This document shows positions 24,908 to 40,317 of a DNA stretch of 51,160 nt, one piece after another; positions within the stretch are counted from its first letter, which is position 1, and every line of letters starts with the position of its first letter. A program made the translations under genes and the position numbers. This stretch comes from a plasmid: the sequence record NZ_CP115194.1. The stretch is one strand, 5' to 3'. The notes beneath the pieces were generated by a model. It did no database searches and had not been told where the DNA came from. It was given only the letters and a program-made list of their open reading frames with translations.

Positions 24908-25214
24908 GCAGCGCGCGGCCCAGTTCGCGTCAGCGAGGTGGGCCGAAACAAACAGAAGCCTGACAGATGCGAGACGCGCCCACGCGGCTCGCAAGGCACC
25001 GAGGCCCCCCAGGGCCGAATGCCGGTCTGCTCCAGGGACGGCCGTCCAGGCCGGGACCTGGAGTGCGAAGCATCAGGCGACGTGCAGCGCGCGCCCGTCT
25101 GCGCTCGACTACTGAAGCCCGCCAGGGCTGAAGTCGGCGAGAGCGGACCCCCGGGTTCCGGGGTGGAGCAGCTGAGCAAGGGACGGGAGAAGGACCGCGG
25201 CGAAGAGTTGCGGG

Positions 25215-25361
25215 CCCCCGGGGGTTGGGGTTCCCCCCCCCCCGGGGGGGGGGGGGGGGGGGAGAGGGGTGGGCCCCCCCCCCGGGGGGGGGCCCCACAG
25301 GGGGGGCGCCTCCGGGGGGGGGGGTTCCCCCCCCCCCGGCCCCCCCCTGGGGGGGGGGGGG
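25215..25361. repeat. tract of alternating long poly-G and poly-C homopolymer runs (up to ~24 nt)
   Basis: Read directly from the sequence, runs such as ccccccccccgggggggggggggggggggg. This is possibly an assembly or sequencing artefact, or else a hypermutable structure-forming tract. Confidence 0.7.
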
Positions 25362-25437
25362 CCCTCTTTACGATAGCGATGCAAGCGGCCTAACGGTGGT
25401 TGCGACTTGGGTAAGGCGCGCCGCAATCATCGTGTTT

Positions 25438-27381
25438 ATGACAGCCCTACCCGTCTTCGCCCTTGCCCTGTTCGTCGTAGCTGTCTATCAGTTCGGCTAC
25501 GATGGTGGCCAGGAATATTGGCTCATCTGGTTTGACATACTGCTCAACAGCCTACGAGACCTGTGGTGGATAGCCGTTCCTTTCTTCGCCCTACCCTTCT
25601 TCGTCAAGATGCTCATTCTCCGGGTCGTTCGCCCGCGCATTTCCGCCGCCTGGCGAAACTGGGGAGTGATGCAATCAGGCGATGCGCTGAGCGACATTCG
25701 CACGGAAGTGAATAGACTCAAGGCCAAGAACTTTCTTCCCAGCAACTACTACAAGGAGGACGAATTTTTCTTCGGCCTAGACGAAAAGAACATCCCCCTA
25801 TATGCCCCGCTGTCGGTCTACGTGAAAACACACATCAAGGCCCTGGGACCATCCCAGACAGGGAAAGGTGTCTTTCTCGGGGTAGAACTCGATCAAGCCA
25901 TTTGGCGTGGCTGGGGTGCATGGTTCATAGACCAAAAACCCGATGACAACATCGTTCACATTATGAGCGAATCTTGTGAGCGCAACGGGCGCCCCGCAAT
26001 GGTTGTGTGCGACTTAACCGGTTCCCGAGAAACGGGCTATCACCCTTTCAAAAACGGCACTAGGCGCGAGCGTCGCGAACGGATCACCAAAGTTTTGGGA
26101 CTTAATGACTCAGGCACTGATGCGGACCATTACAAGAGAAATGCTAGGCGTGTTTTGGATATGCTAATGCCTCATTGGGATGGAACACTTTCCCATCTGG
26201 CAGAGTTGATACAGTACCCGCCAAACTCGCTCACTAGTTCCGAAAAGAATCTCGTAGACAATTTTGGGGGAAACATCGAATCGTCTCTTGTGGAGATGCA
26301 ATTTATCGATGCTCTCGAACCACTTGGCGAGGGACTAAACATTGAGAAAGAATTATTGGCGGGCAGCGTAGTTTATATAAAGTCTGATCTTCAAGACGAC
26401 GTTATACGCAGAGCTGCAAATTGCTTACTTGAAGAAGTAATTCAGGTAGTTCGCCGAATCAGTCTTTCAAGCACCCCCCATAAATATGTGCAACTCACAA
26501 TCGACGAAGCAAGGTTCATGATGACAGACACTCTTGCTAACTCACTGGCAACTGTTTTATCAAAACAACTCCTGATGACTCTCGCCTATCAAGCAAGAGA
26601 AGATCCGCTCAACTTGACAGATAAAACCCTTAACGGAGACTCGATCAAGAACGGTATTGAAACGAATACACAGATCACGATTGTTCATCGGGCTACTGAG
26701 AAAGAAACTGCCCAGTGGATCTCCGACAGTACTGGAGAGGCTCAAAAAAGCATCACCAAAATGGAACGGGTGGAGCGAAATCAAGGCGGGGCTGAAGAGT
26801 GGACTGGCGAGCGCAGTATCGGACAGCAAGCGGAGAACTTCGTCCATACAAATGTGATTCTGGCACTGCCCCCGCGCGTAGCGGTACTCATCATACCGAA
26901 CGTGCTCAGCACGGTCATGTACAGCTGCTGGGTGCCCTACAAGCATGCGCACCCACTCAGCCATTACGTTGCTCTACAGCAGAGCCAGAAGGACGCTCAG
27001 GGTTCCCCGGCTGCCGTCCCCTCCTCTACTGTTCCAGCCGTTCCCGCACCGATAGAAGCGAGTCCTGAGGACATGATCGGTGATGACCCATTCGCAGAGC
27101 TTGACCAGCAACCGGATGACACGATTCTGTTTGACCAGGAGGAAGACCCCTTCGCAGACGCCGACGATATCCCAGTCGCTGCAGAACAACTCCCGCAAGC
27201 AGATGACGGCCCGTCCGGGCTCACCCCGGAGCAACAAGCCATGATCGACGCGGCTGCAAACAATTTGTTCGCTTCTTCTGCCGAGAAGAAGAACAAGACG
27301 ATGAAGCAAGAGAAGAAATCACCTAGCGGCCAGGGCCAAGACGTGGACCTGTCCTCTCTCGACAACGTAGACGGAATCTGA
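25438..27381 (+). CDS. VirD4/TraG-family type IV coupling protein (T4CP) with an acidic C-terminal tail
   Basis: Two N-terminal TM helices. The atypical Walker A LGPSQTGKGVFLGV matches the VirD4/TraG APTRSGKGVG type. FIDQKPDD follows, and the C-terminus is Asp/Glu-rich. Start set at the ATG at 25438, downstream of the G/C tract. Confidence 0.55.
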   Translation: MTALPVFALALFVVAVYQFGYDGGQEYWLIWFDILLNSLRDLWWIAVPFFALPFFVKMLILRVVRPRISAAWRNWGVMQSGDALSDIRTEVNRLKAKNFLPSNYYKEDEFFFGLDEKNIPLYAPLSVYVKTHIKALGPSQTGKGVFLGVELDQAIWRGWGAWFIDQKPDDNIVHIMSESCERNGRPAMVVCDLTGSRETGYHPFKNGTRRERRERITKVLGLNDSGTDADHYKRNARRVLDMLMPHWDGTLSHLAELIQYPPNSLTSSEKNLVDNFGGNIESSLVEMQFIDALEPLGEGLNIEKELLAGSVVYIKSDLQDDVIRRAANCLLEEVIQVVRRISLSSTPHKYVQLTIDEARFMMTDTLANSLATVLSKQLLMTLAYQAREDPLNLTDKTLNGDSIKNGIETNTQITIVHRATEKETAQWISDSTGEAQKSITKMERVERNQGGAEEWTGERSIGQQAENFVHTNVILALPPRVAVLIIPNVLSTVMYSCWVPYKHAHPLSHYVALQQSQKDAQGSPAAVPSSTVPAVPAPIEASPEDMIGDDPFAELDQQPDDTILFDQEEDPFADADDIPVAAEQLPQADDGPSGLTPEQQAMIDAAANNLFASSAEKKNKTMKQEKKSPSGQGQDVDLSSLDNVDGI

Positions 27382-27383
27382 CT

Positions 27384-28193
27384 ATGCCAACTATCTACTC
27401 CGTAATGACGCCCAAAGGCGGCGTCGGCAAGACCACCAGTCTGACCGGGCTGGCCTGCTACATCGCAGGCCAGCTCCAGAAGAAGGTTCTTCTGGTCGAC
27501 CTGGACAACATTGCCAGCCTGACCAACAACTTCCAGGGGGCAGATGTTCGGTACTCGCAGTACAGCAATGTTACGGATCTGTTCGTTGACCCCGACGAAC
27601 AGCGCAAGATCGTGGTGAGCCCTATCTCGGATCGAATCCACCTGATCCAGGGGCACTCGGATATGTCAGCGGTCAACCGCTCTGCCAGCCTCATGGTTCT
27701 GAACCAGCTGGAGGAGAACCTCAAACAGAACGTTCCCGACTTCGAGTCCTATGACTACGTGTTGATCGACACACCAGCCGGCAACGGAAACATCGTGCTG
27801 GCCGCGCTGATAGCTTCGCACCGGGTCTACTCTCCGATCGACCTCGACAACAACGCGATCACCTCCCTCCATGAGCTGGCGAAGATTCTGAAGGTCATTC
27901 GCAACCGCATGAACCCGGACCTGTCCTGGGAAGGATTCCTCATCAACCGAGTACCGAAGCTGGTGAGCTATCTCGGGAAGAAGGTGCCCGAAGCAACGAC
28001 AGAACGGGTTATCTACAACGAGCTGGTCGAGAAGTACCAGGAACGAGCGCTGCTCGGGGTAATCGCGTACCGCAATCCGATCAAGAAGGCTTTCAGCCAG
28101 GGCAAGTGGATTGAGCCGGACAATGACTCGGCTCGAGACGCCCTGGCCGAAGTCGAAGCCTTCTGCAAGAAACTGTTGGAGTCCAAGCAATGA
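27384..28193 (+). CDS. parA: ParA/Soj-family partition ATPase
   Basis: Deviant Walker A KGGVGKTT near the N-terminus. 269 aa. The stop overlaps the downstream gene (ATGA). Confidence 0.85.
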   Translation: MPTIYSVMTPKGGVGKTTSLTGLACYIAGQLQKKVLLVDLDNIASLTNNFQGADVRYSQYSNVTDLFVDPDEQRKIVVSPISDRIHLIQGHSDMSAVNRSASLMVLNQLEENLKQNVPDFESYDYVLIDTPAGNGNIVLAALIASHRVYSPIDLDNNAITSLHELAKILKVIRNRMNPDLSWEGFLINRVPKLVSYLGKKVPEATTERVIYNELVEKYQERALLGVIAYRNPIKKAFSQGKWIEPDNDSARDALAEVEAFCKKLLESKQ

Positions 28194-29212
28194 GTGATGC
28201 CATCGCCGAACTGTTGAACAGCAAATCGTCGGACAACGAACCACGTGAACGGATCGTGCTGATCCACCGCTCCGACCTCTACCCGGACCCGACGCAAGAC
28301 CGTGATGACTGGGAGGCCGAAAGAACTCTCGCCCACATCGCCGGCATCCGCAGGAGTGCGCTGATCCCCCTCGAGGAGGGCCGCCACTACGGAATCCGAA
28401 AAGCTCTTTGGGTGGAACCAGCAGACGAAACAGGGAAGCACAAGATCATCGAGGGAGAATGCCGCTGGAGGGCGACCGAAGACGCTCCGGATGACGTGCA
28501 GCTGCTGCCGTGCATCATCAGTAAAGGTGGCGTTCGCGAACGGCGAATGGACCATGTGACGGGCAACGTCCTCGGCCAGGGGCTGACCGTTTGGCAAACC
28601 GCATGCTCGATCAAGCGGGACAAGGAGGAATTCGGATTCACCACTGAGGAAATCCTTGCGGTACACGGCATCAAGGACAAGTCGCGCCTGAGCCGCTACA
28701 TGAAGGTTTTCAAGCTGAGCCCCGAGGCACAGGAGTTTGCGAAGCTAGATGAATTCCGGGACGTCAACATCATCTACGACCTGGAAAAGCTCGACAAGAT
28801 GGGGCCGGATACCCTGAAGAAGCTGAGCAAGCGCCTGGAGAAAGGGGAAAGCATCCAGACGGCCATCAAGGCGCTGCTGCCGCGTGAAAAAAAGAAATCG
28901 GAGCCGCCGGCGCCGGGGGCAGGGCAGGGGTCAGTTTCAGATTCTGAAACCGGCACCACCCAGCAGCCCTCCAGCGAGGATGGAGCGGCAACCACGGATA
29001 GCGCTTCAACGAGTGACAGCGCCAATACGGCAGCCAGCTCTTCGGGCTCAGTGGTTTCAGATTCTGAAACCAACGGCAGCGCCTCTCTCATGTTGACCCC
29101 GAAGAGAGCCCAAGCCCTGGCCGTACTGCTGAACATCGAACCGGGTGAGGGTGATCTGAGCGCGCTGATCGAGGCGCTTGCTCAAGCCCTGGATGAACTT
29201 GCGGAAAAGTGA
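28190..29212 (+). CDS. parB: ParB-like partition protein with a Ser/Thr/Asp-rich low-complexity linker
   Basis: Translationally coupled to parA. It contains a GGVRERR segment reminiscent of ParB box II, and two 17 bp palindromes inside the coding region. Confidence 0.5.
   Translation: MSDAIAELLNSKSSDNEPRERIVLIHRSDLYPDPTQDRDDWEAERTLAHIAGIRRSALIPLEEGRHYGIRKALWVEPADETGKHKIIEGECRWRATEDAPDDVQLLPCIISKGGVRERRMDHVTGNVLGQGLTVWQTACSIKRDKEEFGFTTEEILAVHGIKDKSRLSRYMKVFKLSPEAQEFAKLDEFRDVNIIYDLEKLDKMGPDTLKKLSKRLEKGESIQTAIKALLPREKKKSEPPAPGAGQGSVSDSETGTTQQPSSEDGAATTDSASTSDSANTAASSSGSVVSDSETNGSASLMLTPKRAQALAVLLNIEPGEGDLSALIEALAQALDELAEK
28934..28950. promoter_or_regulatory. 17 bp perfect palindrome GTTTCAGATTCTGAAAC, a candidate parS/centromere site (copy 1)
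   Basis: Perfect 8 bp arms around a central T. It lies inside the parB-like gene, where it encodes SDSET. Confidence 0.4.
29054..29070. promoter_or_regulatory. 17 bp perfect palindrome GTTTCAGATTCTGAAAC (copy 2)
   Basis: An identical copy 120 bp downstream of the first. Confidence 0.4.
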
Positions 29213-29222
29213 AATAACCCCC

Positions 29223-29654
29223 ATGCCAATTGCCAGAATCGCAACGCTATCCGACTACGTTCCATTCCAGCACGACGGGCGCGCGCTCTATCGTATCCGC
29301 TGGGAAGACGTTTTGTGCCCGGGTAGTCCAACGGACAACCCGGCCGATGGTCTACCCGCCTACAACGCTCACCAGATAGCGGTCGCGGCTGGCAAGCCGA
29401 CGCTGTTCGATGTGTTCGACGACGCAATCGAATGGTGCCTGGCAGGCGAGTCGGTCGATGCGCAACAACTCGCTTCGGACATAGTGAAGCACCACTCACG
29501 CGGCACAGACATTCCCTTGGGTATCGACCAGACCCAAGGGACAACTGTTAGCCGAAATTTTCGTTTTGCGGTCGCCTTCCTCAAGGACCAGATTCGCTCG
29601 CTGCCTCCCAGCAATATCCTGGCCCTAAGAGGAGTAGCTGCGGGTATTAAGTGA
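29223..29654 (+). CDS. hypothetical protein
   Basis: ORF with an internal ATG at 29223, following parB in the same orientation. Confidence 0.4.
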   Translation: MPIARIATLSDYVPFQHDGRALYRIRWEDVLCPGSPTDNPADGLPAYNAHQIAVAAGKPTLFDVFDDAIEWCLAGESVDAQQLASDIVKHHSRGTDIPLGIDQTQGTTVSRNFRFAVAFLKDQIRSLPPSNILALRGVAAGIK

Positions 29655-30262
29655 TGGAAAAGAAGAACGTTCCTGGTAACAAGAAAGCTGCCAACACCGT
29701 CATTACGGTTCACGACAAGTTCGTGGTTGGGATATGGGAAACCTCCTCGCGCAGGATCTCCGGGCGGGTGGTGGTCGATAGCCTATTCTCCGTCGAGTCG
29801 TTCAGCACGACAAAGAAGCCTGAGCATTTGGTCGCCAAAACACTGGCCAAAAAGGTCATTCCAGGCCTGCGGGAAATCATCGAGAGCTACGAGGCCAAGT
29901 TGACCGAAACCCTGAAGACTATCAGGGATGAGGTCAACGAACGCATGGCCGACCCTCTGCTCAAGAGCATCGAGTTCGGCGCGCCTCAAGAGCAGACCTA
30001 TGAATTGGTGGTAGATGGTCGCCACTCCTGGCCCCTGGTCAATCGTTTCGTCCGATCAATCGTCCTCGTCGATGAGATTTCTCAGGCGCTTCGCCAAATG
30101 TACCTGTCCGGCTTCATCGACTACGGCGAATACAAGAAACGTGAGAAGAAGGCGGCCAAACCGATATGGCAATGCATGACCCGACTCGATGAAGTGATAA
30201 AGCACTACCACCAGCAACGTAAGCAGATCGCGGCGATCACTACCGCGGCGAAAGTCGGTTGA
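29651..30262 (+). CDS. hypothetical protein
   Basis: 203 aa. It overlaps the upstream stop by 4 bp. Confidence 0.45.
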   Translation: MMEKKNVPGNKKAANTVITVHDKFVVGIWETSSRRISGRVVVDSLFSVESFSTTKKPEHLVAKTLAKKVIPGLREIIESYEAKLTETLKTIRDEVNERMADPLLKSIEFGAPQEQTYELVVDGRHSWPLVNRFVRSIVLVDEISQALRQMYLSGFIDYGEYKKREKKAAKPIWQCMTRLDEVIKHYHQQRKQIAAITTAAKVG

Positions 30263-30270
30263 GGTGAGCA

Positions 30271-32091
30271 ATGGGCAATCTTCTGATCGTAGAGTCACCG
30301 GCAAAAGCGAAGACCTTCGAGGGCTATCTTGGGCCCGGCTGGGAGGTCAAGGCCTCTTTCGGCCATATTCGGGATCTCCCGGAACATGAAATGGGGGTCG
30401 CAGGTCCTGAATACCGCCCTGACTATGTATTCATAGGGGAGGGCAAGAAAGTATCCGAAGTCCTGAAGAACGCAGCCAGGCGAGCGCTAAGCTCAGGCGG
30501 AGCGGTCTACTTGGGATCCGACGACGATAGGGAAGGGGAGGCGATTGCCTGGCACCTCCAGCAAGTCCTCGGCCTGCAGGATCCCAAGCGCATCACCTTC
30601 GGGGAGATCTCGAAGAAGGAGATTCTTCGCGCGGTCGCAGAACCTCGAAAGATCAATGTGAGATTGGTCGCCGCTCAAGAGGCCCGCAGGATCCTCGACA
30701 GGATCGTTGGCTACTACATCAGCCCGATCGTCCAGGAACTGATGGCAACGTACGACTACTCGGCCGGTCGAGTGCAGAGCGTCGCGGTGTTACTCGTTGT
30801 GGAACGCGAAAATCTCATCCGCGCCCACACTGCGGTTACGCATCACTCGGCACGCTTCGCCTTCCAGGGCGGTTGGTCCGCTGACTGGGCACCTGATGAG
30901 AAATGCACCGACCTGGCCACTGCGGAGCGTATTGCGAACGCTCGGCAGTTTACAGTCCTCGAGCACTCCGTTGGTGAGTCCAGGTCCTCGCCGTTCAAAC
31001 CGTTCATCACATCTACGCTTCAACAGGCGGCCAGTAACGCGCTCAATCTGCGGTCCAAGGCCTGTATGGAGGCGGCGCAGAAGCTGTACGAGGCGGGTCA
31101 CATCACATATATGCGCACCGACAACCCGAACCTCACCGACGATATGCTGGTGGCCGTTCGGGATTATTGTGCCGCTCAGAATCTCCCGCTGTCTGACGAA
31201 CCCAGGACCTGGAAGGCGAAAGCGGACGCTCAGGAGGCACACAAGGGGATCCATCCTACCGACATTACTCGGCTTGAAGCAGGAGAAGACGAGGCCCAGC
31301 GCAAGCTGTATCAACTGATCTGGAAGCGGACGGTCGCCTGTCAGATGGCGGATGCCGTGTTCAAGGTTACCAAGGTCAAGTTGAAGCCCGAGGGATTGGA
31401 TGGGACAGTGGCTGTAGCTGGTGAGCATAGCGAGCTGGTCAGCCCCGGCTACAAGACAATCCTGGCCGAGGATGACGCCGAGGACAAACCAGACGAAGTA
31501 TCGCGCACGACAGGGGCGATTCCGCCGATCGAGACAGGCGCATCCCTTACCGCGACTTCCGGTGAGGTCGTCACGACAAAGACGAAAGCAGCACGCCGTT
31601 TCACCGAGGCCTCGTTGGTGAAGGAGCTGGAGAGCCGCGGGATCGGAAGGCCTTCGTCGTTTGCCGCAATTATGGAAAACATTTCCAAGACCCGGCGCTA
31701 TGTCCAATTGAAGAAGGGGACGAAGTTCCTGGAGCCTACTGACCGTGGCGAGAAACTGGTCCAGGTGCTTCTAAACCGGTTCAGCTTTATGGACGTGGAT
31801 TTCACCAGGGAACTTGAACGCAAGTTGGACGAAATAGCAAAGGGTACTGCGAATTATCGATCAGTTATAGCGGGCTTCGATCAACAGTTGCAGGACGAAA
31901 TTGCGAAGCTGCTTCGAGAGATAGAACCACTTCACCCTTGTCCAAAATGTGGACGCGGACTTCTGCTGATCGAGAAGAAGAAGGAGAAGGGTAAGGAAGC
32001 CAGCGCGTTCTTTGGATGCCGAGGCTTCTTCGATAAGAAGTGTGACGGAATATATCCGGCAAAGGACGGAGCACCAGTAATACAGCAGTGA
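30271..32091 (+). CDS. topA: type IA DNA topoisomerase (plasmid/ICE-type TopA)
   Basis: Toprim N-terminus MGNLLIVESPAKAKTFEGYLG, the DxDxEGE motif (DDDREGEAIAWH), and a C-terminal zinc ribbon CPKCGRG…CRGFFDKKC. Confidence 0.85.
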   Translation: MGNLLIVESPAKAKTFEGYLGPGWEVKASFGHIRDLPEHEMGVAGPEYRPDYVFIGEGKKVSEVLKNAARRALSSGGAVYLGSDDDREGEAIAWHLQQVLGLQDPKRITFGEISKKEILRAVAEPRKINVRLVAAQEARRILDRIVGYYISPIVQELMATYDYSAGRVQSVAVLLVVERENLIRAHTAVTHHSARFAFQGGWSADWAPDEKCTDLATAERIANARQFTVLEHSVGESRSSPFKPFITSTLQQAASNALNLRSKACMEAAQKLYEAGHITYMRTDNPNLTDDMLVAVRDYCAAQNLPLSDEPRTWKAKADAQEAHKGIHPTDITRLEAGEDEAQRKLYQLIWKRTVACQMADAVFKVTKVKLKPEGLDGTVAVAGEHSELVSPGYKTILAEDDAEDKPDEVSRTTGAIPPIETGASLTATSGEVVTTKTKAARRFTEASLVKELESRGIGRPSSFAAIMENISKTRRYVQLKKGTKFLEPTDRGEKLVQVLLNRFSFMDVDFTRELERKLDEIAKGTANYRSVIAGFDQQLQDEIAKLLREIEPLHPCPKCGRGLLLIEKKKEKGKEASAFFGCRGFFDKKCDGIYPAKDGAPVIQQ

Positions 32092-32144
32092 CACTTATAA
32101 CAAGAGAGCCATGCGTTGAATCAAAGACTTTGGTTAATTCGAAA

Positions 32145-32166
32145 AGGGTACTTAGTACCCTTTTTT
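32145..32166 (+). terminator. rho-independent terminator after topA
   Basis: AAAAGGGTACT-TAGTACCCTTTTTT hairpin followed by a T-run. Confidence 0.6.
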
Positions 32167-32220
32167 ATTAGCTACGAGTCGATTTAATAAAATTCGAGCC
32201 TCCTTTCATATAGCGCTCAA

Positions 32221-32495
32221 CACACCAAGGGCTCCGCCCTTGTCATCCCGCTCTTGCCGCCGAGGGCTCGGGAGCGCGGGGCGGAGGAACTGCCCCACAC
32301 TCCCGGCTGAGGCTGTCCAGGGGAGGGGGCTCAAGCGTGCGCTCTGCCCGTGCGTCCGTTCGCCGGAACGGTGCAGCCGTTCCGACGAGCCGGGCGCGCG
32401 GCGCTTGACCCGGAAACGCCGGCGACGTTGGCCACCTGCAGGAGTGATCGAGATCGACGGCTCCACCAGCTGCTCGCCGGCCAGGCCATGCAGGC
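32221..32495. repeat. composite repeat: multi-hairpin element (forward) plus a degenerate 105 bp unit
   Basis: Shares CACCAAGGGCTCYGCCCTTGTCATCCCGCTCTTGCCGCCGAGGGCTCGGGAGCGCGGGGCGGAGG … CGTTCGCCGGAACGGTGCAGCCGTTCCGACGAGCCGG with 35584-35760, and with 21560-21790 in reverse complement. Confidence 0.6.
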
Positions 32496-32665
32496 GATCC
32501 CCCCTAATCAGCGAGAACCAGGTAGCAGTGCGAACCCACTGAAACCACGCTGGAACGCGTGTTCTGTGGACTCGACGCCCATTGACGTCTAATATCTGAC
32601 GCGCCAGTACCAAGGGCACTATGACTGGCTGAAATGCTCATACTTTAAGATCTTGAAGGTGACAT

Positions 32666-33043
32666 ATGAAACCTGTTCTCAAGCAATATACCCTCGACGA
32701 ACCCATGCTTGGTGGAGTCAGCCGTGGGTTGGTCACGTTGGTCAATGATTACGACGCGCTCGTTCCGTTGATCGATGCAGCCCGCTACGTACGAGCACAA
32801 GGTGGACGGGAGACGCCTCTAGAGCCGACTCCCATTTGCCTTACTGGTGATGCGGGTGAAGAATGGGTATCCGTTTTTCATTCCGACGTCCACAATACTC
32901 TTTTCGTCCTGCGCACCCGTGGCGCTACTCATGAGACGAGAATCTTTGCCTATACTTATGGGAAGCAACCGTTTCTCCTCGTAGATGCGGTCCAAATCCT
33001 TAAGTATCACAAGAGCACTTACACATTACACCTCTGGTCTTAA
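32666..33043 (+). CDS. hypothetical protein (low-GC cassette)
   Basis: 125 aa ORF between two repeat elements, followed by a terminator. Confidence 0.45.
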   Translation: MKPVLKQYTLDEPMLGGVSRGLVTLVNDYDALVPLIDAARYVRAQGGRETPLEPTPICLTGDAGEEWVSVFHSDVHNTLFVLRTRGATHETRIFAYTYGKQPFLLVDAVQILKYHKSTYTLHLWS

Positions 33044-33046
33044 TGT

Positions 33047-33090
33047 CGTAAGTGAGGGGAGGTAGCTTTGCTACCTCCTCTTTTTTTTGC
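33047..33090 (+). terminator. rho-independent terminator
   Basis: GAGGGGAGGTAGC-TTTG-CTACCTCCTC hairpin followed by TTTTTTTT. Confidence 0.6.
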
Positions 33091-33258
33091 AAAACCTACT
33101 TTCGCGCAATGCAAAGATGGGTATTCGACTGCACAAATTGCATATATTGTGCAGAGCTTTACTGATCTGGATTTCTGCCCTAGTATTTCAGTCGACAGTA
33201 GCAGGGCGCTATGACTGTCTGAAACGCTCATATCTTAATATCAAGCAGGAATCCGACC

Positions 33259-33540
33259 ATGAGTCAGCACCTTTTCTCTTCGGAAGTTGGGAATAAGAAA
33301 TTCGAAGTTATTATGGGTTGGGATAATCCAACTAAGAGTTTCTTCCTCATTATCTTCGATAAGAAATCTGATGAAGACTATCCGGTCTACACCAACCTGG
33401 ATGAAGTGATGCCCCGAGACCTGGACTACTACGTTGGAAAATGTCGTGATCTGGGAATCGACGTGAAGCCAGAGATCATTGCGGAAATACGGGATGACCA
33501 ACGGTTGAACGTCAGCAATAAAGTGAAGGAGTGGAACTGA
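33259..33540 (+). CDS. hypothetical protein (AT-rich cassette)
   Basis: 93 aa, ~42% GC. Its stop overlaps the next ORF. Confidence 0.4.
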   Translation: MSQHLFSSEVGNKKFEVIMGWDNPTKSFFLIIFDKKSDEDYPVYTNLDEVMPRDLDYYVGKCRDLGIDVKPEIIAEIRDDQRLNVSNKVKEWN

Positions 33541-33815
33541 TGAACACGAAGCACATTGCAGCGTATTCCTTTACCTCCTTCAGCGTTGAGGGAACCTTCG
33601 GCTGCACGTTCTTCGCACCCTCGTTAGAGGAAGTGAAAGAGATGGCACGAGCCCAAGGCTTCCGCAACCTCCAATACTATCCACGGTTCATCATGGATCG
33701 TTCTGCCATGCGTGCACGCTCGAAAGAGCTTGCAGGTCAGGTAGTACCTGAAAGCGTGCTTGGGATGTTATTGCACGATGCTCCATTGAGGACTGACGAT
33801 ATGGTTCCCTTCTAG
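33531..33815 (+). CDS. hypothetical protein (AT-rich cassette)
   Basis: 94 aa, followed by the terminator AGAGGGCGC-TTGC-GCCCTCT plus a T-run at 33826-33864. Confidence 0.4.
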   Translation: MELMNTKHIAAYSFTSFSVEGTFGCTFFAPSLEEVKEMARAQGFRNLQYYPRFIMDRSAMRARSKELAGQVVPESVLGMLLHDAPLRTDDMVPF

Positions 33816-33882
33816 TAACACTAGAGGGAAACCAGAAGAGGGCGCTTGCGCCCTCTTTTTTTATTCCCCTCCCGTCTGGCGG

Positions 33883-34123
33883 GTCCACGGTACCAGGTGC
33901 TCGGCGCCGCCGGCGCCGATGGCCATCCCCTGGACGTGATCGAGGTCGACGGGCTCCACCAGCTGCTCGCCGGCCAGGCCGGACGGATCCACGGCACCAG
34001 GTGCTCGGCGCCGCCGGCGCCGATGGCCACCCCCTGGACGTGATCGAGGTCAACGGGCTCCACCAGCTGCTCGCCGGCCGCGCCGGACGGATCCACGCCA
34101 CCAGGTCCTCGGCGCTGATTACG
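33883..34123. repeat. tandem 105 bp repeat, ~2.3 copies
   Basis: Same unit as at 20105-20495. Confidence 0.7.
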
Positions 34124-34247
34124 GCGTTCCAGATAGGGTATACCTCACTAGGCACGCCCTAGGGCGACGGGAAAATTCTCTCCTCCGTTGAAGTGAACAC
34201 CTAAAATGGCACACACTTTAGCGGACACTCATAATGGAACAGCAACA

Positions 34248-34868
34248 ATGTTCGTTCGAGCATATCTGCGCGCTTCGACCGCAGAACAGGATGCAACCCG
34301 GGCGAGGGCAGAACTGGATTCATTCGCCCTCGAGCACGGTAAGGTCATCGCTGCGGAGTATGTCGACAACGTGAGCGGCGCCAAGGCCGATCGACCGGCG
34401 CTGAAGAGGTTGCTCAAGGACGCAAGGGAGGGCGACGTGCTGCTGGTGGAGAGCATCGATCGCCTGACTCGGTTGCCTGAAGGGGAGTGGAAAACTCTGC
34501 GCGGCGCAATCGACTCCATCGGCCTCCGGATTGTCGCCCTGGACCTGCCCACCAGCCACCTTGGGATGAAGCCAACCCAAGGGGACCAGTTCACCAGCCG
34601 CATGCTTGCTGCGATCAACGAACTGATGGTCGAGATGATGGCGGCTATTGCCCGTAAGGATTACGAACAGCGACGAACTCGCCAGGCACAGGGGATCCGT
34701 AAAGCCAAGGAGGCGGGAGCCTACCGAGGCCGCGGCGTTGACCAGCAGTTGCACAACAGGGTTCGCGAACTCCTATCTGCTGGACTAGGTATTCGAGCCA
34801 CCGCTCGACTGGCACAGTGCTCGCCGACAACGGTCATCAAGATTCGTAACCAGGCAACGACGGAATGA
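34248..34868 (+). CDS. serine recombinase (resolvase/invertase family)
   Basis: Contains YLRASTAEQD with a catalytic Ser, and a C-terminal HTH. Start set at the ATG at 34248. Confidence 0.75.
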   Translation: MFVRAYLRASTAEQDATRARAELDSFALEHGKVIAAEYVDNVSGAKADRPALKRLLKDAREGDVLLVESIDRLTRLPEGEWKTLRGAIDSIGLRIVALDLPTSHLGMKPTQGDQFTSRMLAAINELMVEMMAAIARKDYEQRRTRQAQGIRKAKEAGAYRGRGVDQQLHNRVRELLSAGLGIRATARLAQCSPTTVIKIRNQATTE

Positions 34869-34881
34869 GAGGAAGGCGCGC

Positions 34882-35082
34882 ATGCAGGAAGTCAACCGCG
34901 AAGAACTGCAAGATCTCCGCTACGAACTGAACGATCTGGCCGAGCGGTACATCCGCACATTCGGCAACAGCAAGGACGGGATGGAAGGGCTCGCCGAGGA
35001 CCTGGTGCGGATCGTTGCAGACGAGAAGTATCCAGGCGGCTGGGCAGGGCTGGTGAGCTTCATCATGAAAGCCAGCGGCTGA
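34882..35082 (+). CDS. hypothetical small protein
   Basis: 66 aa. Followed by the bidirectional terminator AAAAAAGGCGCCTAGGCGCCTTTTTT at 35100-35133. Confidence 0.35.
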   Translation: MQEVNREELQDLRYELNDLAERYIRTFGNSKDGMEGLAEDLVRIVADEKYPGGWAGLVSFIMKASG

Positions 35083-35139
35083 GTCCGATCCTACCGACAC
35101 AAAAAAGGCGCCTAGGCGCCTTTTTTGTTTTGAGCGCGC

Positions 35140-35490
35140 TCAGTGACTGACACTGCGCGCTGCGTCCCGTACCAGGGGTAACAGCTTGTCGCGCTGGACC
35201 TGATAGAAGATTTGGGCAACGACACCGAGAACTCCAAGCCCCACGATAATGGGTGCCAGCTGGTCACCATACTGCTTGGTGATTGTTGGCCCAGCCCCCA
35301 AGAACCCCTGCAGGATGAATTCAAGCAGCATCCAACATAGAAGCAGGGTGAAGAGTCCCACTGTGCCAACCTTCGACGCGATATCGAAAAGGCGGTACAG
35401 CACGTAGTTCATGCCCGCCTGTTTTTTGATGGTGGCCAGCATTTCGCGTTCAACGTCGTGGAACAGCGATTTGTTGCGAAAGAAGATCAT
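35140..35490 (-). CDS. hypothetical membrane protein
   Basis: 116 aa with two to three hydrophobic helices. It converges on the shared terminator. Confidence 0.4.
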
Positions 35491-35520
35491 CGGCTATCCC
35501 TCCTAAGAAGACCGGCGCCA

Positions 35521-35887
35521 AAGGGCAGAGCCACTTGGGGAATCCTTCCCATCCCTGCCCCTGGCGCGGTTCGGGGATGGTAACACCAAGGGCTCTGCCC
35601 TTGTCATCCCGCTCTTGCCGCCGAGGGCTCGGGAGCGCGGGGCGGAGGAGCTGCCCCACACTCCCCAGCGGAGGCTGTCCAGGGCAGGGGGCTCAAGCGT
35701 GCGCTCTGCCCGTGCGTCCGTTCGCCGGAACGGTGCAGCCGTTCCGACGAGCCGGGCGCGCGGCGCTTGACCCAGAACCGCCGGCGCCGGTGGCCATCCC
35801 CTGGACGTGATCGAGGTCGACGTCTCCACCAGGTGCTCGCCGGCCAGGCCGGACGGATCCACGGCACCAGGTCCTCGACGATCGCGC
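35521..35887. repeat. composite repeat: multi-hairpin element (forward) plus one 105 bp unit
   Basis: See 32221-32495. It ends with GGCCATCCCCTGGACGTGATCGAGGTCGAC. Confidence 0.6.
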
Positions 35888-36035
35888 CTAGCGGTTTGGG
35901 GGAGGGCAAGGAATCGCGTAAGCGACCCCGAAGGGGCAAGGGCTAGTCGAACGAAGTTCGACGTTGGGCTTGTTCCGCGCAGGGCGTGGCTCTCGCGCGG
36001 CCATAGAAAAGGCCCGCGGGTGCGGGCCTGGGGGA

Positions 36036-36293
36036 CTACTCGCCGTTGAAGTAGGCGCCTCGCTCCTGGAACTCGCGGGCGATCAGTTCCTGGGCGAAGA
36101 GTGGGGCGGTCTTCTCGATCCGCTTCACCATCTTCCGCCGGCGAGCTTCAGCTTTGCGCTCAGCACTCCAGCGCTGGACAGCCTTGGAGGGAGGGAAGTC
36201 GATGCAGACGCCGTATCCCTGGCCCTGGTACTCCTTCCATAACTCGCGAATTTTGGTGGGGATAGGCGCTCCGGGCACGGTGTATTTGACCAT
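36036..36293 (-). CDS. hypothetical protein
   Basis: Start set at the internal MVKYTVPG. It is co-directional with, and just downstream of, the ParB-nuclease-like gene. Confidence 0.35.
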   Translation of the reverse strand: MVKYTVPGAPIPTKIRELWKEYQGQGYGVCIDFPPSKAVQRWSAERKAEARRRKMVKRIEKTAPLFAQELIAREFQERGAYFNGE

Positions 36294-36389
36294 CAGCTCT
36301 CGTCGGCCTGGGCAGGGTCTATGCGGCAGGCACCAACGGAGCGAGTAGCGCCACATCAGTGGCGCTCCACGCTTTTTCATGAGACCCCC

Positions 36390-38363
36390 TTACGCCTTCG
36401 GCTCGTGGCTTGCGAGGATCGCCGGCAGCCAGTTCGACCCTTCGGCCAGGCGTCCAGCCTCGGCGGCCAGGTCGATCTTCTTGAGGGTGGAGAGGCGGGC
36501 CACTTCTGCCGGTGCGATGGTCTGCATGGCTTCCAGGGTCAACCCCTTGGGCACCTCACGGAAATAGGCGTCGGCGGTCGGCTTCCACCAGTTGCGCATA
36601 TCCAGTTCAAGGGTTTGGGCCAGGACGTCCGCACCGCTCTGGCCATCGGTGCCCTTGTCGCTCACGACGTCGACGCCGGTGGCAACGCAGAAGGCGAGCA
36701 GGTCGTTGAGGTCAGCCATCGACAGATCGAGGAGGGCGGCGAACAGTTGGCGGGGTTCGCTCGGCAGTCGCTCCCGCCACTGCCCACGCATGTCTTCGAG
36801 TGCCTGGAGGACGGCCGAGTCCTTGAGGTCGGAAGCGTATTCGGTCAGGCCGCCGCGCTGTGAGACGCTGACGCCGACCGGTACGGCGAAGCGCGGGGAG
36901 TGGTCGCTGTGGATGATCTGGATGGCCAGTTTGTGGACCACTGCGACCAGGGCCACTTTCGGGTTTCGGGCCAGTTCGACTTGCAGGGCCGCGGTCTTGT
37001 GAGCGGTCAACTGGCGGCCCATGCGGTCCGGCAGGCGCGCCGTTTGTTCCTTCGGTGCGTCGTCGGTGCTCTGGCCGTCCGTCCCCTGTTTTTCGCCACC
37101 TTCGACGGCAGCCATGTCTTCAGGCTTGACCAGACCACGCCGGACTTCCACGTCTCCGGAGTTCCCAACGCTGATGATGCATCCCGCCGTGGTCATCGCT
37201 TCCGGGTCGTAGGACCTCACCGCTCCGCTCTCCAGGGCGTGGAGACGATCTTCGGCATCCCCTTTCTCCTGCTCCAGGCGTTCGGCAGTGTCGAAATCCT
37301 CTGCCTCGAAGGCGTTTTCGATCTCGGTTTCCAGTTGATCGAGAGCGGCCTTGAGACTGGCACGCTCGGTCTGTTGCTCCGGGGTCAACTCGACGGGCAG
37401 GGGGTGAATCCGTCCGAATTTGTACAGATCAGAGGTGTTGAAGCGGGGCATGACTTCAACCCACCCCCAGCCTTCCGCCCGGATCGGCTCGGCGATAGGC
37501 TCCAATTTCTCGATAGCGAGCTTGTCGAGGAGCGGCAGGTCGGTGATGTAGGAGTCCTCCGCGTTGCCGAACAGGTCGCGGCGTACCGCACCGCCGGCTT
37601 GCTCATAGGCTTCCAGTCCGACGAATCTCGCCAGGGGTTCATGCCGCACCAGGGTTTCTCCCCTGGTCACTGCCCGGCGAAGTTCATAGGGTTGACGCAT
37701 CCACGACTGGACGTCGAAGAAAGCCGCTTCCTGAATTTCGTGGTTGTCGCAGATGGCCAGGGCCTGCAACTGCTCCATGTTCGCCGATCCTTCGCGGTAG
37801 GCCTGGATCAGCCTCGGGGAGAGGTTGGCCAGCTTGAGGCGTTGCTTCACCACCACAGGGGTGACGCCGAAGCTTGCGGCGATATCGGCAACAGGAATGC
37901 CGGCGTTGGACAGTTCCTGGAACGCGATGAACTCGTCGGCCGGGTGCATGGCTTCGCGCTGGACGTTCTCGGACAGGCTCGCAGTAAGCCCGGTGCTCTC
38001 GTCCACGATCTGGCACATGATGAGGGTGTCGGCGCTGAGCTTCTTCTTCTCGACCAGGGCATGCAGCTTCGCCAAGCGGCGACCGCCGGCGGCAACGTCG
38101 TAGAAACCATCCTCGGCCTCGATGACGACGAGGTTCTGCAACAGCCCCTGGGATTGCAGGCTCGCTTCCAGGGCATCCCCGGCCTCGGCACTGGCGGCAG
38201 ATACCCGCACGTTCTTCGCCCACAGACGGAGCTTCTTGAGCGGAATCTCTTTCCACACCCCGCCCGGCAGTTTCGACGCGGCAGCGCTCTTGGCCTTCCC
38301 CCTTGCTTTGCTAGATGCTCCTTGAGCCGGCTTTTGCTGTTGCTTCTGAGTGTTGTTGTTCAT
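36390..38363 (-). CDS. large ParB/Spo0J-nuclease-domain protein (plasmid/ICE type)
   Basis: N-terminal ParB-like core (LVVIEAEDGFYDVAAGGRRLAKLHAL) followed by a ~500 aa extension. The start ATG at 38361-38363 is preceded by the AGGAGAAAACC ribosome-binding site. Confidence 0.6.
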   Translation of the reverse strand: MNNNTQKQQQKPAQGASSKARGKAKSAAASKLPGGVWKEIPLKKLRLWAKNVRVSAASAEAGDALEASLQSQGLLQNLVVIEAEDGFYDVAAGGRRLAKLHALVEKKKLSADTLIMCQIVDESTGLTASLSENVQREAMHPADEFIAFQELSNAGIPVADIAASFGVTPVVVKQRLKLANLSPRLIQAYREGSANMEQLQALAICDNHEIQEAAFFDVQSWMRQPYELRRAVTRGETLVRHEPLARFVGLEAYEQAGGAVRRDLFGNAEDSYITDLPLLDKLAIEKLEPIAEPIRAEGWGWVEVMPRFNTSDLYKFGRIHPLPVELTPEQQTERASLKAALDQLETEIENAFEAEDFDTAERLEQEKGDAEDRLHALESGAVRSYDPEAMTTAGCIISVGNSGDVEVRRGLVKPEDMAAVEGGEKQGTDGQSTDDAPKEQTARLPDRMGRQLTAHKTAALQVELARNPKVALVAVVHKLAIQIIHSDHSPRFAVPVGVSVSQRGGLTEYASDLKDSAVLQALEDMRGQWRERLPSEPRQLFAALLDLSMADLNDLLAFCVATGVDVVSDKGTDGQSGADVLAQTLELDMRNWWKPTADAYFREVPKGLTLEAMQTIAPAEVARLSTLKKIDLAAEAGRLAEGSNWLPAILASHEPKA

Positions 38364-38560
38364 TTCGGTTTTCTCCTGGGATGTTGCTGTGGTGGTTGAA
38401 CTTGCTTCGCTGAGTGACCTTTCGCCGTGAGCCCGGAGTGGGCCTGGCCGTAGAGGTCGGGTGGCAAGGGGAGAAACCGGAAGCCGCATGCGCCGAGCGC
38501 AGCGAGGGGAACGGGTGAGGATTTCTAGCGCAGCGACCCTTGCTGGCCGGCCGGGCCAGG
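38364..38560 (-). promoter_or_regulatory. conserved ~200 nt 5' leader, copy A (shared with the copy at 47535-47735)
   Basis: ~85% identity with 47535-47735. Both copies lie directly upstream of a gene start on the minus strand. Confidence 0.45.
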
Positions 38561-38835
38561 TCAACGTTTAGGGCGTGCGAAAGGGCATCCAGGGAAGCGC
38601 CGAAGTTCGGCCGCGACGCTCACCGGAGGGGCTGGAAAGGGACAACGCGGGCGCAAGCCCGGGCGCGCGGAGCGCGCAGCGACTGCCAGGCGGAGCCTGG
38701 TGGGAGCGGAAGCGAGAGCCGACCGCAGGGAGGGAAGGATGGAAGCCCGAAGGGGCGAGACGCCGCCGGCGGCTCGATGCGTAGCACGACAGCCCGGGCC
38801 GCAGGCCTCGCAAGGAACTGCTGCGTTGTGTGAAG

Positions 38836-39099
38836 TCAGCCGGCCGGCTCGCCTTCGATCCGCATTTCCGTCTCGTTGCCAACTACCCGTTTGCGCTCGA
38901 ACAGTCCGCGCAGCTCTTCAGCACTGAACAGGCCTGCCTCGGCAACGCGCAGAATGTCCATGGCATCGAGCATGCCCTGGAGGTAGCCGATATCGAAACG
39001 GTAGGTGCGCACGTCTTGGGCCTTGGCCAGCGCACGGAACGAACTTTCCAGCAGGTGGAGCAGCTCGTCGCGCTGCTGCGTGTTGTTCTCGGAGGTCAT
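38836..39099 (-). CDS. hypothetical protein
   Basis: 87 aa ORF in the conserved ICE/plasmid hypothetical-gene block. Confidence 0.35.
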   Translation of the reverse strand: MTSENNTQQRDELLHLLESSFRALAKAQDVRTYRFDIGYLQGMLDAMDILRVAEAGLFSAEELRGLFERKRVVGNETEMRIEGEPAG

Positions 39100-39112
39100 G
39101 GGCGTGTTCCTT

Positions 39113-39385
39113 TCAGTTGGCCGCGGCCTTGTTCACGACGTGGAGTTCCGCCTCGATAGCGCGCAGCTCGCGGGCGCCTGGCTCACTCATACCGCAGTCG
39201 GGGAGGTGGCCGAACACCAGAAGCGCGCAGAGCGCATGGTAGCGAGCCAGGTAGTCCCGGCAGGCCTGCTCCAACTGTTCGCCGCCGATGCCTTCGGCCT
39301 TCTTGCGATGGAAGGAAAGGATGGCATCCAGTTCCTGGCGGGCGTTGTCGATGATGGTCTGCTCCAGACGGGGAATGCTGGTCAT
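39113..39385 (-). CDS. hypothetical protein
   Basis: 90 aa. Its start overlaps the stop of the next gene by 4 bp. Confidence 0.35.
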   Translation of the reverse strand: MTSIPRLEQTIIDNARQELDAILSFHRKKAEGIGGEQLEQACRDYLARYHALCALLVFGHLPDCGMSEPGARELRAIEAELHVVNKAAAN

Positions 39386-39633
39386 GGCTGAACTCCGCCC
39401 TGCGCGGTGCTGGCCAGCAGGTCACGCACCTGGTGAGGAGGAACGACAGTACCGTCGAGCGACCAGGTGAACAGTGGTACCGACCCCATGTCGGCCATCA
39501 CCAGCAGGCGACGGCCCGCGACCTGAAGGACGTCGGCCGCTACTGGCGGGCGGCGCCGGCGGATCAGTGCGTCCCGCCGCAGCTTGGTCATGAGGAATTC
39601 GGCCTGGACTATGCGTGCTGTCGCGTTGTTCAT
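39382..39633 (-). CDS. hypothetical protein
   Basis: ORF with the internal start MNNATARIVQ. Confidence 0.3.
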   Translation of the reverse strand: MNNATARIVQAEFLMTKLRRDALIRRRRPPVAADVLQVAGRRLLVMADMGSVPLFTWSLDGTVVPPHQVRDLLASTAQGGVQP

Positions 39634-39692
39634 GAGGGCGCTCCGTTCCTGTGTCAAAATACTGGTTTTCCATACAGCATAGGTCTTCGCAC

Positions 39693-39944
39693 ATGGCCAC
39701 CCAGAAGTTGCCGCCATTTGCTCCCGTAACGCTCGCCGAGTTGCGCCGGATCTGGCAAGAACATCCGGCGGAGGATGTTCGCCGGTTGACCCTTGAGGTA
39801 GCGAGGTATCGCCAGGTGATAGCCGAAATCGACGGGCACTATCGCCACATCCATCAGTCGTGGCGCGACACGGTGGGCGGAGAACTCTTCGCGCTGCACC
39901 TGCTCAAGCAACTGATGTACACCGAACGACAGCGCTTGGGCTAG
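39693..39944 (+). CDS. hypothetical protein
   Basis: Starts MATQKLPPF. It is divergent from the minus-strand block. Confidence 0.3.
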   Translation: MATQKLPPFAPVTLAELRRIWQEHPAEDVRRLTLEVARYRQVIAEIDGHYRHIHQSWRDTVGGELFALHLLKQLMYTERQRLG

Positions 39945-39994
39945 GAAGACCCGCGAGGGTCCACCAGTTGGCAGCGACGAGCAGGGCAGAAGCA

Positions 39995-40243
39995 TCAGCC
40001 GTTTGGCTTCAGCGCGACCGTGAGGCCCGCGAGCAAGGCGTGCGCATCTGTTTCGAAGCCGGCTGCGGCGTGGTGTCGGCGGCCAGCGGCGTCGACGAGC
40101 TCCCAGCCGAAGTTGTCCCCCAAGTAGAAGACGTCGAGGACCAGGTGCTCGGCCTGCACCGAGTGCATCAGTTCATGCTCCTCGAGGTTGAACGCGGGCA
40201 GTTCGCGGGGTTCGTCAACGTCGAGCTCGATCTCTGTGGCCAT
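39995..40243 (-). CDS. hypothetical acidic protein
   Basis: Starts MATEIELDVDEPREL. Confidence 0.3.
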   Translation of the reverse strand: MATEIELDVDEPRELPAFNLEEHELMHSVQAEHLVLDVFYLGDNFGWELVDAAGRRHHAAAGFETDAHALLAGLTVALKPNG

Positions 40244-40317
40244 GGTGTTTCTCCTAGATGTTGTGCCGTTGGTCAGCTGGCCGGGCACAAGATGTTGGGT
40301 TCAAGGTGGTGCTGCGA

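Follow-up and report, generated by a model that had tools for sequence, protein, structure and literature searches.

The subject of this study is a 51,160-nt stretch of plasmid DNA (sequence record NZ_CP115194.1; this whole stretch is called the window hereafter) and a repeated ~190-nt element within it, termed E. The window encodes type IV secretion system (T4SS) proteins, a type IV coupling protein (T4CP), ParA, a KorB-like protein, topoisomerase IA and a serine recombinase, as well as a 724-aa ParB_N protein, a KfrA-like protein and a DUF3560 protein. E is a non-coding module that acts as a folded single-stranded nucleic acid. A covariance model found exactly three copies in the window (199-212 bits): E1, a full copy of ~193 nt at 32222-32414 (198.7 bits), lies 130 bp downstream of the topoisomerase IA gene topA (30271-32091); E2 at 35583-35776 (207.7 bits) lies between the minus-strand genes 36036-36380 and 35140-35490; and E3 at 21590-21784 (211.9 bits) is an inverted copy. 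The folded sense, also called the viral sense here, is on the minus strand in E1 and E2 and on the plus strand in E3, and the opposite strand of the copies reached only ~24 bits with the same model, from a single sub-hairpin. By BLAST within the window, E1 is 96.4% identical to E2 (E-value 1e-88) and, in inverted orientation, 92.8% identical to E3 (E-value 1e-78), and a repeat finder paired the copies at 88-98% identity over pieces of 83-142 nt. A first-pass annotation of the window, made from the letters and open reading frames (ORFs), had placed a multi-hairpin element of more than 90% identity at these three locations, which these comparisons bear out.

Read in the folded sense, E consists of four hairpins (HP1 to HP4), which are described here for E1. 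HP1 is an imperfect 78-nt hairpin (32331-32408, minus strand) with the base GGTCAAG.G/C.CTTGA and the tip GGAACGG-CTGCA-CCGTTCC, and it is followed by a three-way junction (32256-32313, minus strand) that contains HP2 (32272-32302, GAG.GTGGGGC...GCCCCGC.CTC) and HP3 (32260-32271, CCGAG-CC-CTCGG). The terminal hairpin HP4 (32226-32242, minus strand, CAAGGGC-NNN-GCCCTTG) marks one sharp end of E, and the ends of the element are sharp in every context in which it was found. Two stems had been named in the first-pass annotation: CAAGGGC-TCT-GCCCTTG is indeed present at 35587-35603 and 21764-21780, with TCC as the loop in E1, while GGAACGG-TGCAG-CCGTTCC is present but does not stand by itself, being the tip of the 78-nt hairpin.

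The fold was assessed on 96 distinct copies of E aligned in the viral sense. RNAalifold assigned alignment columns 13-91 to HP1 and 184-201 to HP4, with a junction helix around HP2 (124-154) and HP3 (155-166). Standard pairs accounted for 99.5% of 4793 cells over the 50 consensus pairs, and 16 of these pairs showed changes on both sides (121 cells), which was reached in none of 500 shuffles; control structures slid by 1-3 columns gave 2-5 compensatory pairs and 34-48% pairing. One such change, a compensatory swap from G-C to C-G at columns 18/86 of HP1, separates E1 and E2 from E3. G·T combinations occupied 115 cells at 15 pairs and A·C combinations 5 cells, and because G·T outnumbers A·C by 115:5, the selected fold is that of the viral sense and not of its complement or of the duplex. 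Folding E1 as single-stranded DNA (ssDNA) agreed with this (z = -3.55 for the viral sense, with 0 of 200 shuffles as good; z = -2.13 for the other sense). Rfam 15 contained no match to E at gathering thresholds, and only chance-level hits appeared at E-values up to 10.

E is also a regular component of filamentous phages. The first plasmid search already returned a number of small 'plasmids' that are replicative forms of Pf phages and match only query positions 23-215. In the phage collection, all 30 matching Pf inovirus records, every one of them a P. aeruginosa phage, carry one full-length E at 74-91% identity. The element lies between PA0718 and gene 5 both in Pf1 (6886-7077) and in the Pf4-type prophage (3441-3632), while in a second inovirus lineage (17897, 42-1, WX_Y) it is intergenic, with a zot-like gene or att end on one side and repressor or rep genes on the other. 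The two Pf lineages have different initiators, a Rep of the Ff gene-II (G2P) family in the second lineage and the PA0727 type, and E is the sole nucleotide similarity between them (one pair also shares a 69% coaA stretch); it is likewise all that Pf4 shares at this level with the window plasmid, or with L004, a mobilizable plasmid of 12 kb. The homology of E3 to a Pf4-type phage extends beyond the element, reaching 21572-21825 (256 bp, 92.6%) and taking in an extra flanking hairpin, CCAAGGGGAATCATTCCCCTTGG. In all the phages, the plus strand of E1 corresponds to the strand opposite the phage genes, so the viral strand carries its reverse complement: without exception, the folded sense of E coincides with the coding (viral) strand of the phage.

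Representative genomes of Pseudomonas, Stutzerimonas, Ectopseudomonas and their relatives gave 87 stretches with a 24-nt E motif. Full-length E was present at 86 of them, with 79-92% identity and 1-5 loci per genome, and Pf-type genes adjoined it at 83 of these 86 loci; the other three sit at the edge of a locus or on a short contig with the neighbours out of view. Two contexts recurred. In context A, E lies between PA0718 and gene 5, as in Pf1; in context B, it lies 350-500 bp upstream of a PA0727-type Rep gene and an integrase gene, beside a tRNA or tmRNA gene. The context B elements, with the order Cox-like small regulators, E, Rep and integrase (L018 556-4546, L024, L060, L043 and ~50 other loci), showed no structural (coat, zot) genes within ~4.5 kb and may be inovirus satellites. 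At least 120 IMG/VR contigs in the size range of inoviruses (3-14 kb) had one E match each. A dispersed repeat of the repetitive extragenic palindrome (REP) or miniature inverted-repeat transposable element type was rejected on the basis of this small number of chromosomal loci and their position beside Pf-type genes, and the genome scan thereby upholds the earlier statement that the element is not random REP scatter.

In Pf1 and Pf4 the element lies under an annotated gene. The ORFs orf110 and PA0719 overlie E in Pf1 (L007 6815-7147) and in the Pf4-type record (L008 3370-3747), and E itself is undescribed in the literature searched, where the region is treated as the protein gene PA0719/orf110 (PMC12328805, PMC7549136). 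Insertions and deletions of 1 nt among the phage copies (alignment columns 44 and 109) break any frame, so E has no conserved reading frame and is non-coding; a protein-coding reading was rejected on these grounds and because E is intergenic in the second lineage and in plasmids. PA0719 has been described as having a conserved N-terminus and divergent C-termini, and a PA0719 start-codon mutant formed the replicative form normally (PMC12328805), both of which agree with the frame-breaking changes. This suggests that most of the annotated orf110/PA0719 ORF is not a real coding sequence. P. aeruginosa CRISPR protospacers have been reported in PA0719 (PMC7549136), and since PA0719 overlies E, spacers against it could also match the plasmid copies.

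A sensitive search identified 113 plasmid records with E, of which MOB-suite classed 62 as conjugative and 9 as mobilizable, with the window's own plasmid family among those classed as non-mobilizable. Around 77 conjugative plasmids of the pPT23A type from the P. syringae complex, together with pMP-R124, carry one full-length E at ~76% identity; these copies keep HP1, HP2 and HP4 and have HP3 swapped for a different small hairpin. In five of five inspected syringae-type plasmids, the genes T4CP-TrbM-topA-x-ssb-E-stbB-x follow each other on one strand, then come a short opposite-strand gene and a nikA-like gene with a gene for a 1245-aa relaxase, which puts E between ssb and stbB and 2-3 kb from the nikA-relaxase operon and its probable origin of transfer (oriT). 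L004 encodes a NikA-like protein and a PF03432 relaxase and has E 1.8 kb from its probable oriT.

The two halves of the element can occur separately. HP1 without the other hairpins of E is carried by the rolling-circle plasmids pPP81, whose rep product scores as Pfam Rep_1, and pHPA0170-3 of the same replicon cluster, as an 83-nt hairpin with 82% identity and compensatory changes at the tip, in a non-coding region; a second hairpin comes next, and the E model gave 101-109 bits for the region as a whole. The HP2-HP4 half occurs by itself in the IncP-9 plasmid pNAH20 (L108 8001-8083), downstream of mobF. Both pPP81 and pHPA0170-3 have a single pC194-type motif CTTGATA, the established plus-strand nick site of this Rep family. 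The viral sense of HP1 is on the strand with this nick motif, which is presumably the one displaced as ssDNA. A search for CTTGATA in a third rolling-circle plasmid, L107, found none; here HP1 is on the rep-coding strand. L107 is a 3.85-kb plasmid deposited as a dimer, and each monomer has two tandem HP1-like copies (3129-3234 and 3317-3398). No Pf proteins are encoded on the E-bearing plasmids examined, and no Pf plus-origin or other Pf DNA was found on the plasmids compared.

What these replicons have in common is not a gene but an ssDNA stage, and wherever the strand that becomes single is known (phages) or can be deduced from the nick motif (pPP81 and pHPA0170-3), the folded sense lies on that strand, the pattern that marks a single-strand origin or initiation site. 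On a slight balance of probability, E would be a host-recognised single-strand origin (sso) or single-strand initiation (ssi) signal that starts second-strand DNA synthesis, a reading drawn from sequence comparisons. The strand with the viral sense would become exposed as ssDNA, which in Pf inoviruses and rolling-circle plasmids would be the viral or displaced strand; the hairpins of E would remain free of SSB, the protein that binds single-stranded DNA, and could recruit a host priming activity, be it primase, a PriA-type primosome or RNA polymerase, and the primer made at E would then start synthesis of the complementary strand. E is independent of any one Rep or relaxase family, co-occurring with three Rep families (G2P, PA0727-type and Rep_1) and with relaxases of the MOBC, MOBP, Pfam PF03432 (MobA/VirD2-type) and MOBF groups, and, judged by these associations, it may rely on priming enzymes of the host without any need for the initiator of the replicon that carries it. 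A nicking origin for Rep was rejected since E is found with three unrelated Rep families and with none, and an oriT since it is found with four relaxase families and in phages.

For the window plasmid, this reading has to be placed in the geometry of conjugative transfer. The window region matches ~26 P. aeruginosa plasmids of 35-107 kb, the closest being pF052_2 (99.8-100% identity across 19000-37000), and represents the 'type I' (pT1) backbone of the KPC plasmids of sequence type ST463. MOB-suite classes pT1-type plasmids as non-mobilizable, and a pT1-KPC plasmid has a reported conjugation frequency of 3.8e-1 per recipient (PMC11659478). Pfam scans of the unknown proteins of the window gave no relaxase, and a MobC-family (MOBC) relaxase candidate then came from NCBIfam (23427-24185, minus strand; NF041423, E-value 1.4e-18), which would be why typing tools call this conjugative family non-mobilizable; a MOBC relaxase has been predicted for the relative pP33-2 as well (PMC8287167). 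The candidate gene, mobC, and the T4CP gene (25225-27381) are divergent, and the region between them (24186-25224) is the likely oriT, a candidate by deduction from its position, with a 198-bp sequence repeated twice in tandem inside it (24513-24909) and an inverted repeat close by (25236-25361).

The transferred strand (T-strand) was predicted with two rules of thumb, namely that the gene for the relaxase is the last to enter and that the T-strand is the template for the genes of the leading region (PMC11541004). Since mobC and the ParB/KfrA/DUF3560 block lie on the minus strand, both rules give the plus strand of the window as the T-strand, leaving the probable oriT towards the T4CP gene. 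E3 is then on the predicted T-strand, 2.4-3.6 kb from its 3' end, and from a primer made there nearly all of the T-strand could be copied in one run; at this position near the trailing end, E3 would serve conversion in the recipient. The predicted T-strand also carries the folded sense in L004 and in the half-element of pNAH20, which is placed like E3. As the copies face both ways, each strand of the window plasmid carries at least one E, and E1 and E2 would support replacement-strand or lagging-strand priming in the donor. A primer at E1, E2 or the syringae-type copies would be extended in the direction of unwinding, as such donor priming needs. The E1/E2 and syringae-type copies have the same orientation relative to predicted transfer and are inverted relative to topA, and because they agree despite the inversion of topA, the orientation of E seems to follow the geometry of transfer and not the direction of genes.

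Several observations weigh against a role in initiating second strands. The transferred strand is itself a prediction from rules of thumb, and under it the retained strand is the one with the folded sense in E1, E2 and the syringae-type copies, which lie on the leading side of oriT, so that a recipient-side role fits only E3, L004 and the pNAH20 half-element; such mixed orientation on conjugative plasmids counts against a simple 'recipient-only' ssi. The base of HP1 has a -35-like hexamer (TTGACC, TTGAGC or TTGAAC), and no TAnnnT or other -10 hexamer was present 16-18 nt downstream, in either sense, in any copy read in the alignment. A sliding-window folding scan with mononucleotide shuffles ranked the E windows among the top six in Pf1, and E is not uniquely the most structured region of Pf1 or phage 17897. 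The functions of a packaging signal and an origin are inseparable in phages by sequence alone, and the folded sense is the mRNA sense of the neighbouring genes in most contexts, with E1 and the copy in L106 as exceptions. A sigma-70 RNA polymerase promoter of the Frpo or M13 geometry was rejected, as only the -35-like hexamer is there, and a Frpo-type mechanism is unsupported without the -10 hexamer at that distance; for the Frpo geometry to fit in the syringae-type plasmids, the non-viral sense would have to be the active one, and the fit fails for E1, from which reading would then run antisense into topA. The literature searched yielded nothing usable on the pPP81 sso and no mapping of a Pf minus-strand origin or packaging signal.

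It is unlikely that E acts as RNA, that is, as a structured segment of an operon transcript that serves in processing or stability or that regulates neighbours such as gene 5 and ssb by binding an ssDNA/RNA-binding protein of the phage or plasmid. The folded sense is the mRNA sense in all phages, in L004, in the syringae-type plasmids (ssb-E-stbB), in E2 and E3 and in the rolling-circle plasmids; G·U pairs are well tolerated in RNA; genes for single-strand-binding proteins adjoin E both in Pf1-type phages and in syringae-type plasmids; and PA0717-PA0719 has been reported as the top-expressed Pf4 region in biofilms (PMC12328805). However, E1 is antisense to both flanking genes with no minus-strand gene nearby, the L106 copy is antisense to its neighbours, and the neighbouring genes differ completely between contexts, so there is no common regulatory target, whereas an ssDNA stage is the only property common to the hosts. 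The lack of an Rfam match argues in the same direction, and HP4 is not followed by a run of T and is therefore not an intrinsic terminator.

A packaging signal of Pf phages, formed by E or part of it, is a still weaker candidate, and I consider it quite improbable that plasmids are packaged into Pf virions by it or interfere with them, as phagemid-like hitch-hikers or anti-phage decoys. Each inovirus genome has exactly one copy, always on the viral strand, and E has also been kept by the satellite-like elements. The packaging hairpin of Ff phages is ~78 nt long and HP1 is of about this size, small rolling-circle plasmids that make circular ssDNA carry HP1, and the Pf4-type homology of E3, flanks included, suggests a recent exchange. 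On the other hand, a signal read by assembly proteins should diverge with them, and E is 75-85% conserved across lineages that have at most distantly related morphogenesis proteins and, the coaA stretch aside, no other nucleotide similarity, which disfavours it as a packaging signal. Rolling-circle plasmids need an sso anyway and have HP1 where one is expected, the plasmids are without the Pf plus-origin, other Pf DNA or Pf genes, and those of P. syringae keep E although the matching phages are all P. aeruginosa phages. The more specific version, in which E holds a Pf packaging or assembly signal and plasmids keep it for extrusion of their ssDNA in Pf virions or for titrating assembly proteins, is very improbable; if true, it would mean a natural phagemid-like spread of rolling-circle and conjugative resistance plasmids, or an anti-phage decoy.

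Equally poor are the prospects for the plasmid copies being functionless relics of recombination with Pf replicative forms that were later duplicated in the plasmid. This would account for the Pf4-type flanks of E3 and for the junctions of E1 and E2 with an adjacent repeat, U, which look like one duplicated junction (268 bp, 93%). Against it, all three copies are full length and are kept in every full-size member of the plasmid family at 92-100% identity, the G-C to C-G swap between E1/E2 and E3 is compensatory, and distant plasmid families keep the hairpins at ~76% identity, even with HP3 replaced by a different hairpin. A relic is therefore unlikely.

The tandem repeat U lies next to the copies of E. 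Its unit had been given as 105 bp, and Tandem Repeats Finder set the period at 104 bp, which is not a multiple of 3, so that the arrays are non-coding. The units are all in plus orientation: array 1 (20125-20477, 3.4 copies, with a copy number that varies among relatives), a single unit at 21407-21510, ~80 bp from E3, array 3 (33880-34115, 2.3 copies), which ends ~130 bp upstream of the serine recombinase gene, and two partial units that abut E1 (32417-32487, 71 bp, unit positions 59-103 then 1-27) and E2 (35778-35880, 103 bp, unit positions 58-102 then 1-57). The first-pass annotation was right that E adjoins a unit at 32221 and 35584, although both units are partial and start at about unit position 58, and right that an inverted E follows a unit near 21395, with one full copy before E3. 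E and U do not form one fixed composite: all U units share one orientation while E3 is inverted, and they are hence separate modules. U is absent from the phages and from the other plasmids that carry E, and its arrays are a repeat specific to this plasmid family.

The first-pass annotation had further read the elements as delimiters of cargo cassettes, possibly served by the adjacent serine recombinase (34248-34868, plus strand, with a Resolvase N-terminal domain and HTH_7, mentioned here as context only). This was compared in five complete relatives and through the boundaries of alignment pieces for 26 plasmids. Differences do cluster at repeats, but the breakpoints are in the U arrays and not in E: alignment breaks in the 26 relatives fall at ~20198, 34115 and 35850-35880, each of them either within a U array or at one of its ends, with further breaks at ~24510/25370 belonging to the 198-bp tandem repeat and not to a U array. 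The gene 20580-21149, which had been described as bracketed by the elements, is flanked by U arrays instead of E copies and is missing from the relatives L012 and L013, where both arrays are merged. Its protein weakly resembles the YjaZ family, labelled 'stationary phase growth adaptation' (E-value 2e-14). Relatives L013 and L014 have a 2.3-kb insertion directly beyond the U that adjoins E2, L013 has a 358-bp deletion (33440-33798) and L011 a large deletion. The segments between the elements are mostly conserved backbone and not cassettes (the mobC-virB11 module, T4CP to topA and the resolvase block; conserved blocks at 21785-25222, 25370-32221 and most of 32488-35205). E itself occupies the same three syntenic backbone positions in every full-size family member (three places per record), is single-copy in phages, in satellite-like elements and on other plasmids, all of them settings without cassettes, and occurs in Pf prophages of many Pseudomonadaceae chromosomes, away from any cargo boundary, which the first-pass annotation had named as an outcome that would refute its reading.

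The U arrays thus behave as recombination hot spots among relatives, for which homologous recombination between the repeats, or slippage, is a sufficient explanation, though the resolvase might also act on U, and E is a backbone feature with a job other than that of U. A cassette-delimiting, site-specific recombination system made of E and U has the slimmest chance of all the alternatives: breakpoints at U arrays that adjoin E, a U-flanked gene that comes and goes, an insertion at the E2-U junction in L013 and L014 and an array of direct units just upstream of the resolvase gene, the usual position of a res site, speak for it, but E is fixed in the family, single-copy elsewhere and separable from U, its covariation reflects selection for single-strand folding rather than for a binding site in duplex DNA, the blocks that separate the elements are mostly invariant, and breaks inside long near-identical tandem repeats are expected from homologous recombination or slippage.

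Other features of the window and its relatives were recorded in passing. A virB4-like gene is split into two ORF halves (13856-15130 and 17160-18620) by an IS21-family insertion sequence at 15303-17176, which consists of an IstA-like integrase gene (16106-17176) and an IstB gene (15303-16106). In place of the split gene, pF052_2 has an intact 2553-bp gene annotated as a hypothetical protein, and L012 and L013 have a gene of the same size at that position annotated as VirB4. The AT-poorer T4SS region, with a GC content of 46-50%, also contains a ~2-kb tandem duplication, whose segments 9616-9915/11664-11963 and 11322-11621/13361-13660 are 99% and 87% identical and contain paired ORFs without assigned function. 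A fragment of a Tn3-family transposase gene (4910-6142) adjoins a resolvase-like ORF (region 4100-6176), and identical direct repeats of 126 bp lie at 6051-6176 and 46808-46933; this DNA is also found on L004, 84-91% identical. At their 5' ends, the genes for the 724-aa ParB_N protein and for the DUF3560 protein have ~290 bp in common (38303-38595 and 47468-47763) at 78-90% identity, which suggests that the two proteins may have a common N-terminal module. Finally, plasmid relatives carry the anti-CRISPR genes acrE1, acrF3 and a third of acrF type (L012 5851-6841; L014 47141-48140) in a same-strand block that corresponds to 36036-48000 of the window, and L012 alone among these has a gene for an SOS-response peptidase.

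Returning to E as a putative single-strand initiation signal, it resembles several established systems in behaviour and matches none of them in sequence or motif. Like the intergenic region of Ff phages (f1/M13/fd), which is needed only in cis, E is a non-coding multi-hairpin region on the viral strand with one copy per genome; the second Pf lineage even has it at the classical location, with the zot-like gene on one side and the repressor or rep genes on the other, and the Ff packaging hairpin is similar in size to HP1. Unlike the Ff region, E shows no sequence similarity to it and has no -35/-10 pair in its stems as the RNA-polymerase-dependent Ff origin does, lies upstream of gene 5 under an annotated ORF in Pf1 and Pf4, and occurs on plasmids as well. 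The ssi and Frpo sites of the plasmids F, ColIb-P9, R100 and R6K (Masai and Arai 1997; Nomura 1991; Samuel et al. 2024, PMC11541004) are likewise structured ssDNA, often in several copies, and would share with E the reading by host enzymes independently of the relaxase and, in the syringae-type plasmids, a place in the leading region beside ssb; they differ, as far as motifs and descriptions were compared, in that E is without a -10 element and is oriented both ways with respect to the predicted T-strand. According to Nomura 1991, as cited in PMC11541004, ssi sites of plasmids can stand in for the minus origin of M13. That is a functional interchange between ssi sites and phage minus origins, whereas the phage and plasmid copies of E are natural close homologues (75-93%). 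Placement on both strands is familiar from ColE1, which has primosome sites on both.

With the sso of rolling-circle plasmids E shares the arrangement in pPP81-type plasmids, where HP1 and the following hairpin are in a non-coding region on the strand with the nick motif, the orientation that an sso requires; E is not known to resemble the ssoA, ssoU, ssoT or ssoW types. Integron attC sites and the pdif modules of Acinetobacter plasmids are also hairpin repeats in both orientations near variable DNA, and attC too acts as folded ssDNA, but there is no IntI here, E does not flank each variable segment, and with 190 nt and four hairpins it is single-copy in most replicons. The P. aeruginosa dif site is not known to resemble E, no motif scan having been run.

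Pf phages are clinically important, and E offers a precise and testable candidate for a cis-element in them. I know of no earlier sequence-defined family of single-strand initiation elements for the conjugative plasmids of Pseudomonas; if the reading given here is true, E would be such a family for the KPC-carrying pT1 plasmids and for the pPT23A family of virulence plasmids. Its two orientations pose the question of priming in the donor versus the recipient. As a cis module common to inoviruses, satellite-like elements and rolling-circle, mobilizable and conjugative plasmids at 75-93% identity, E is a clear case of exchange across these classes of replicon.

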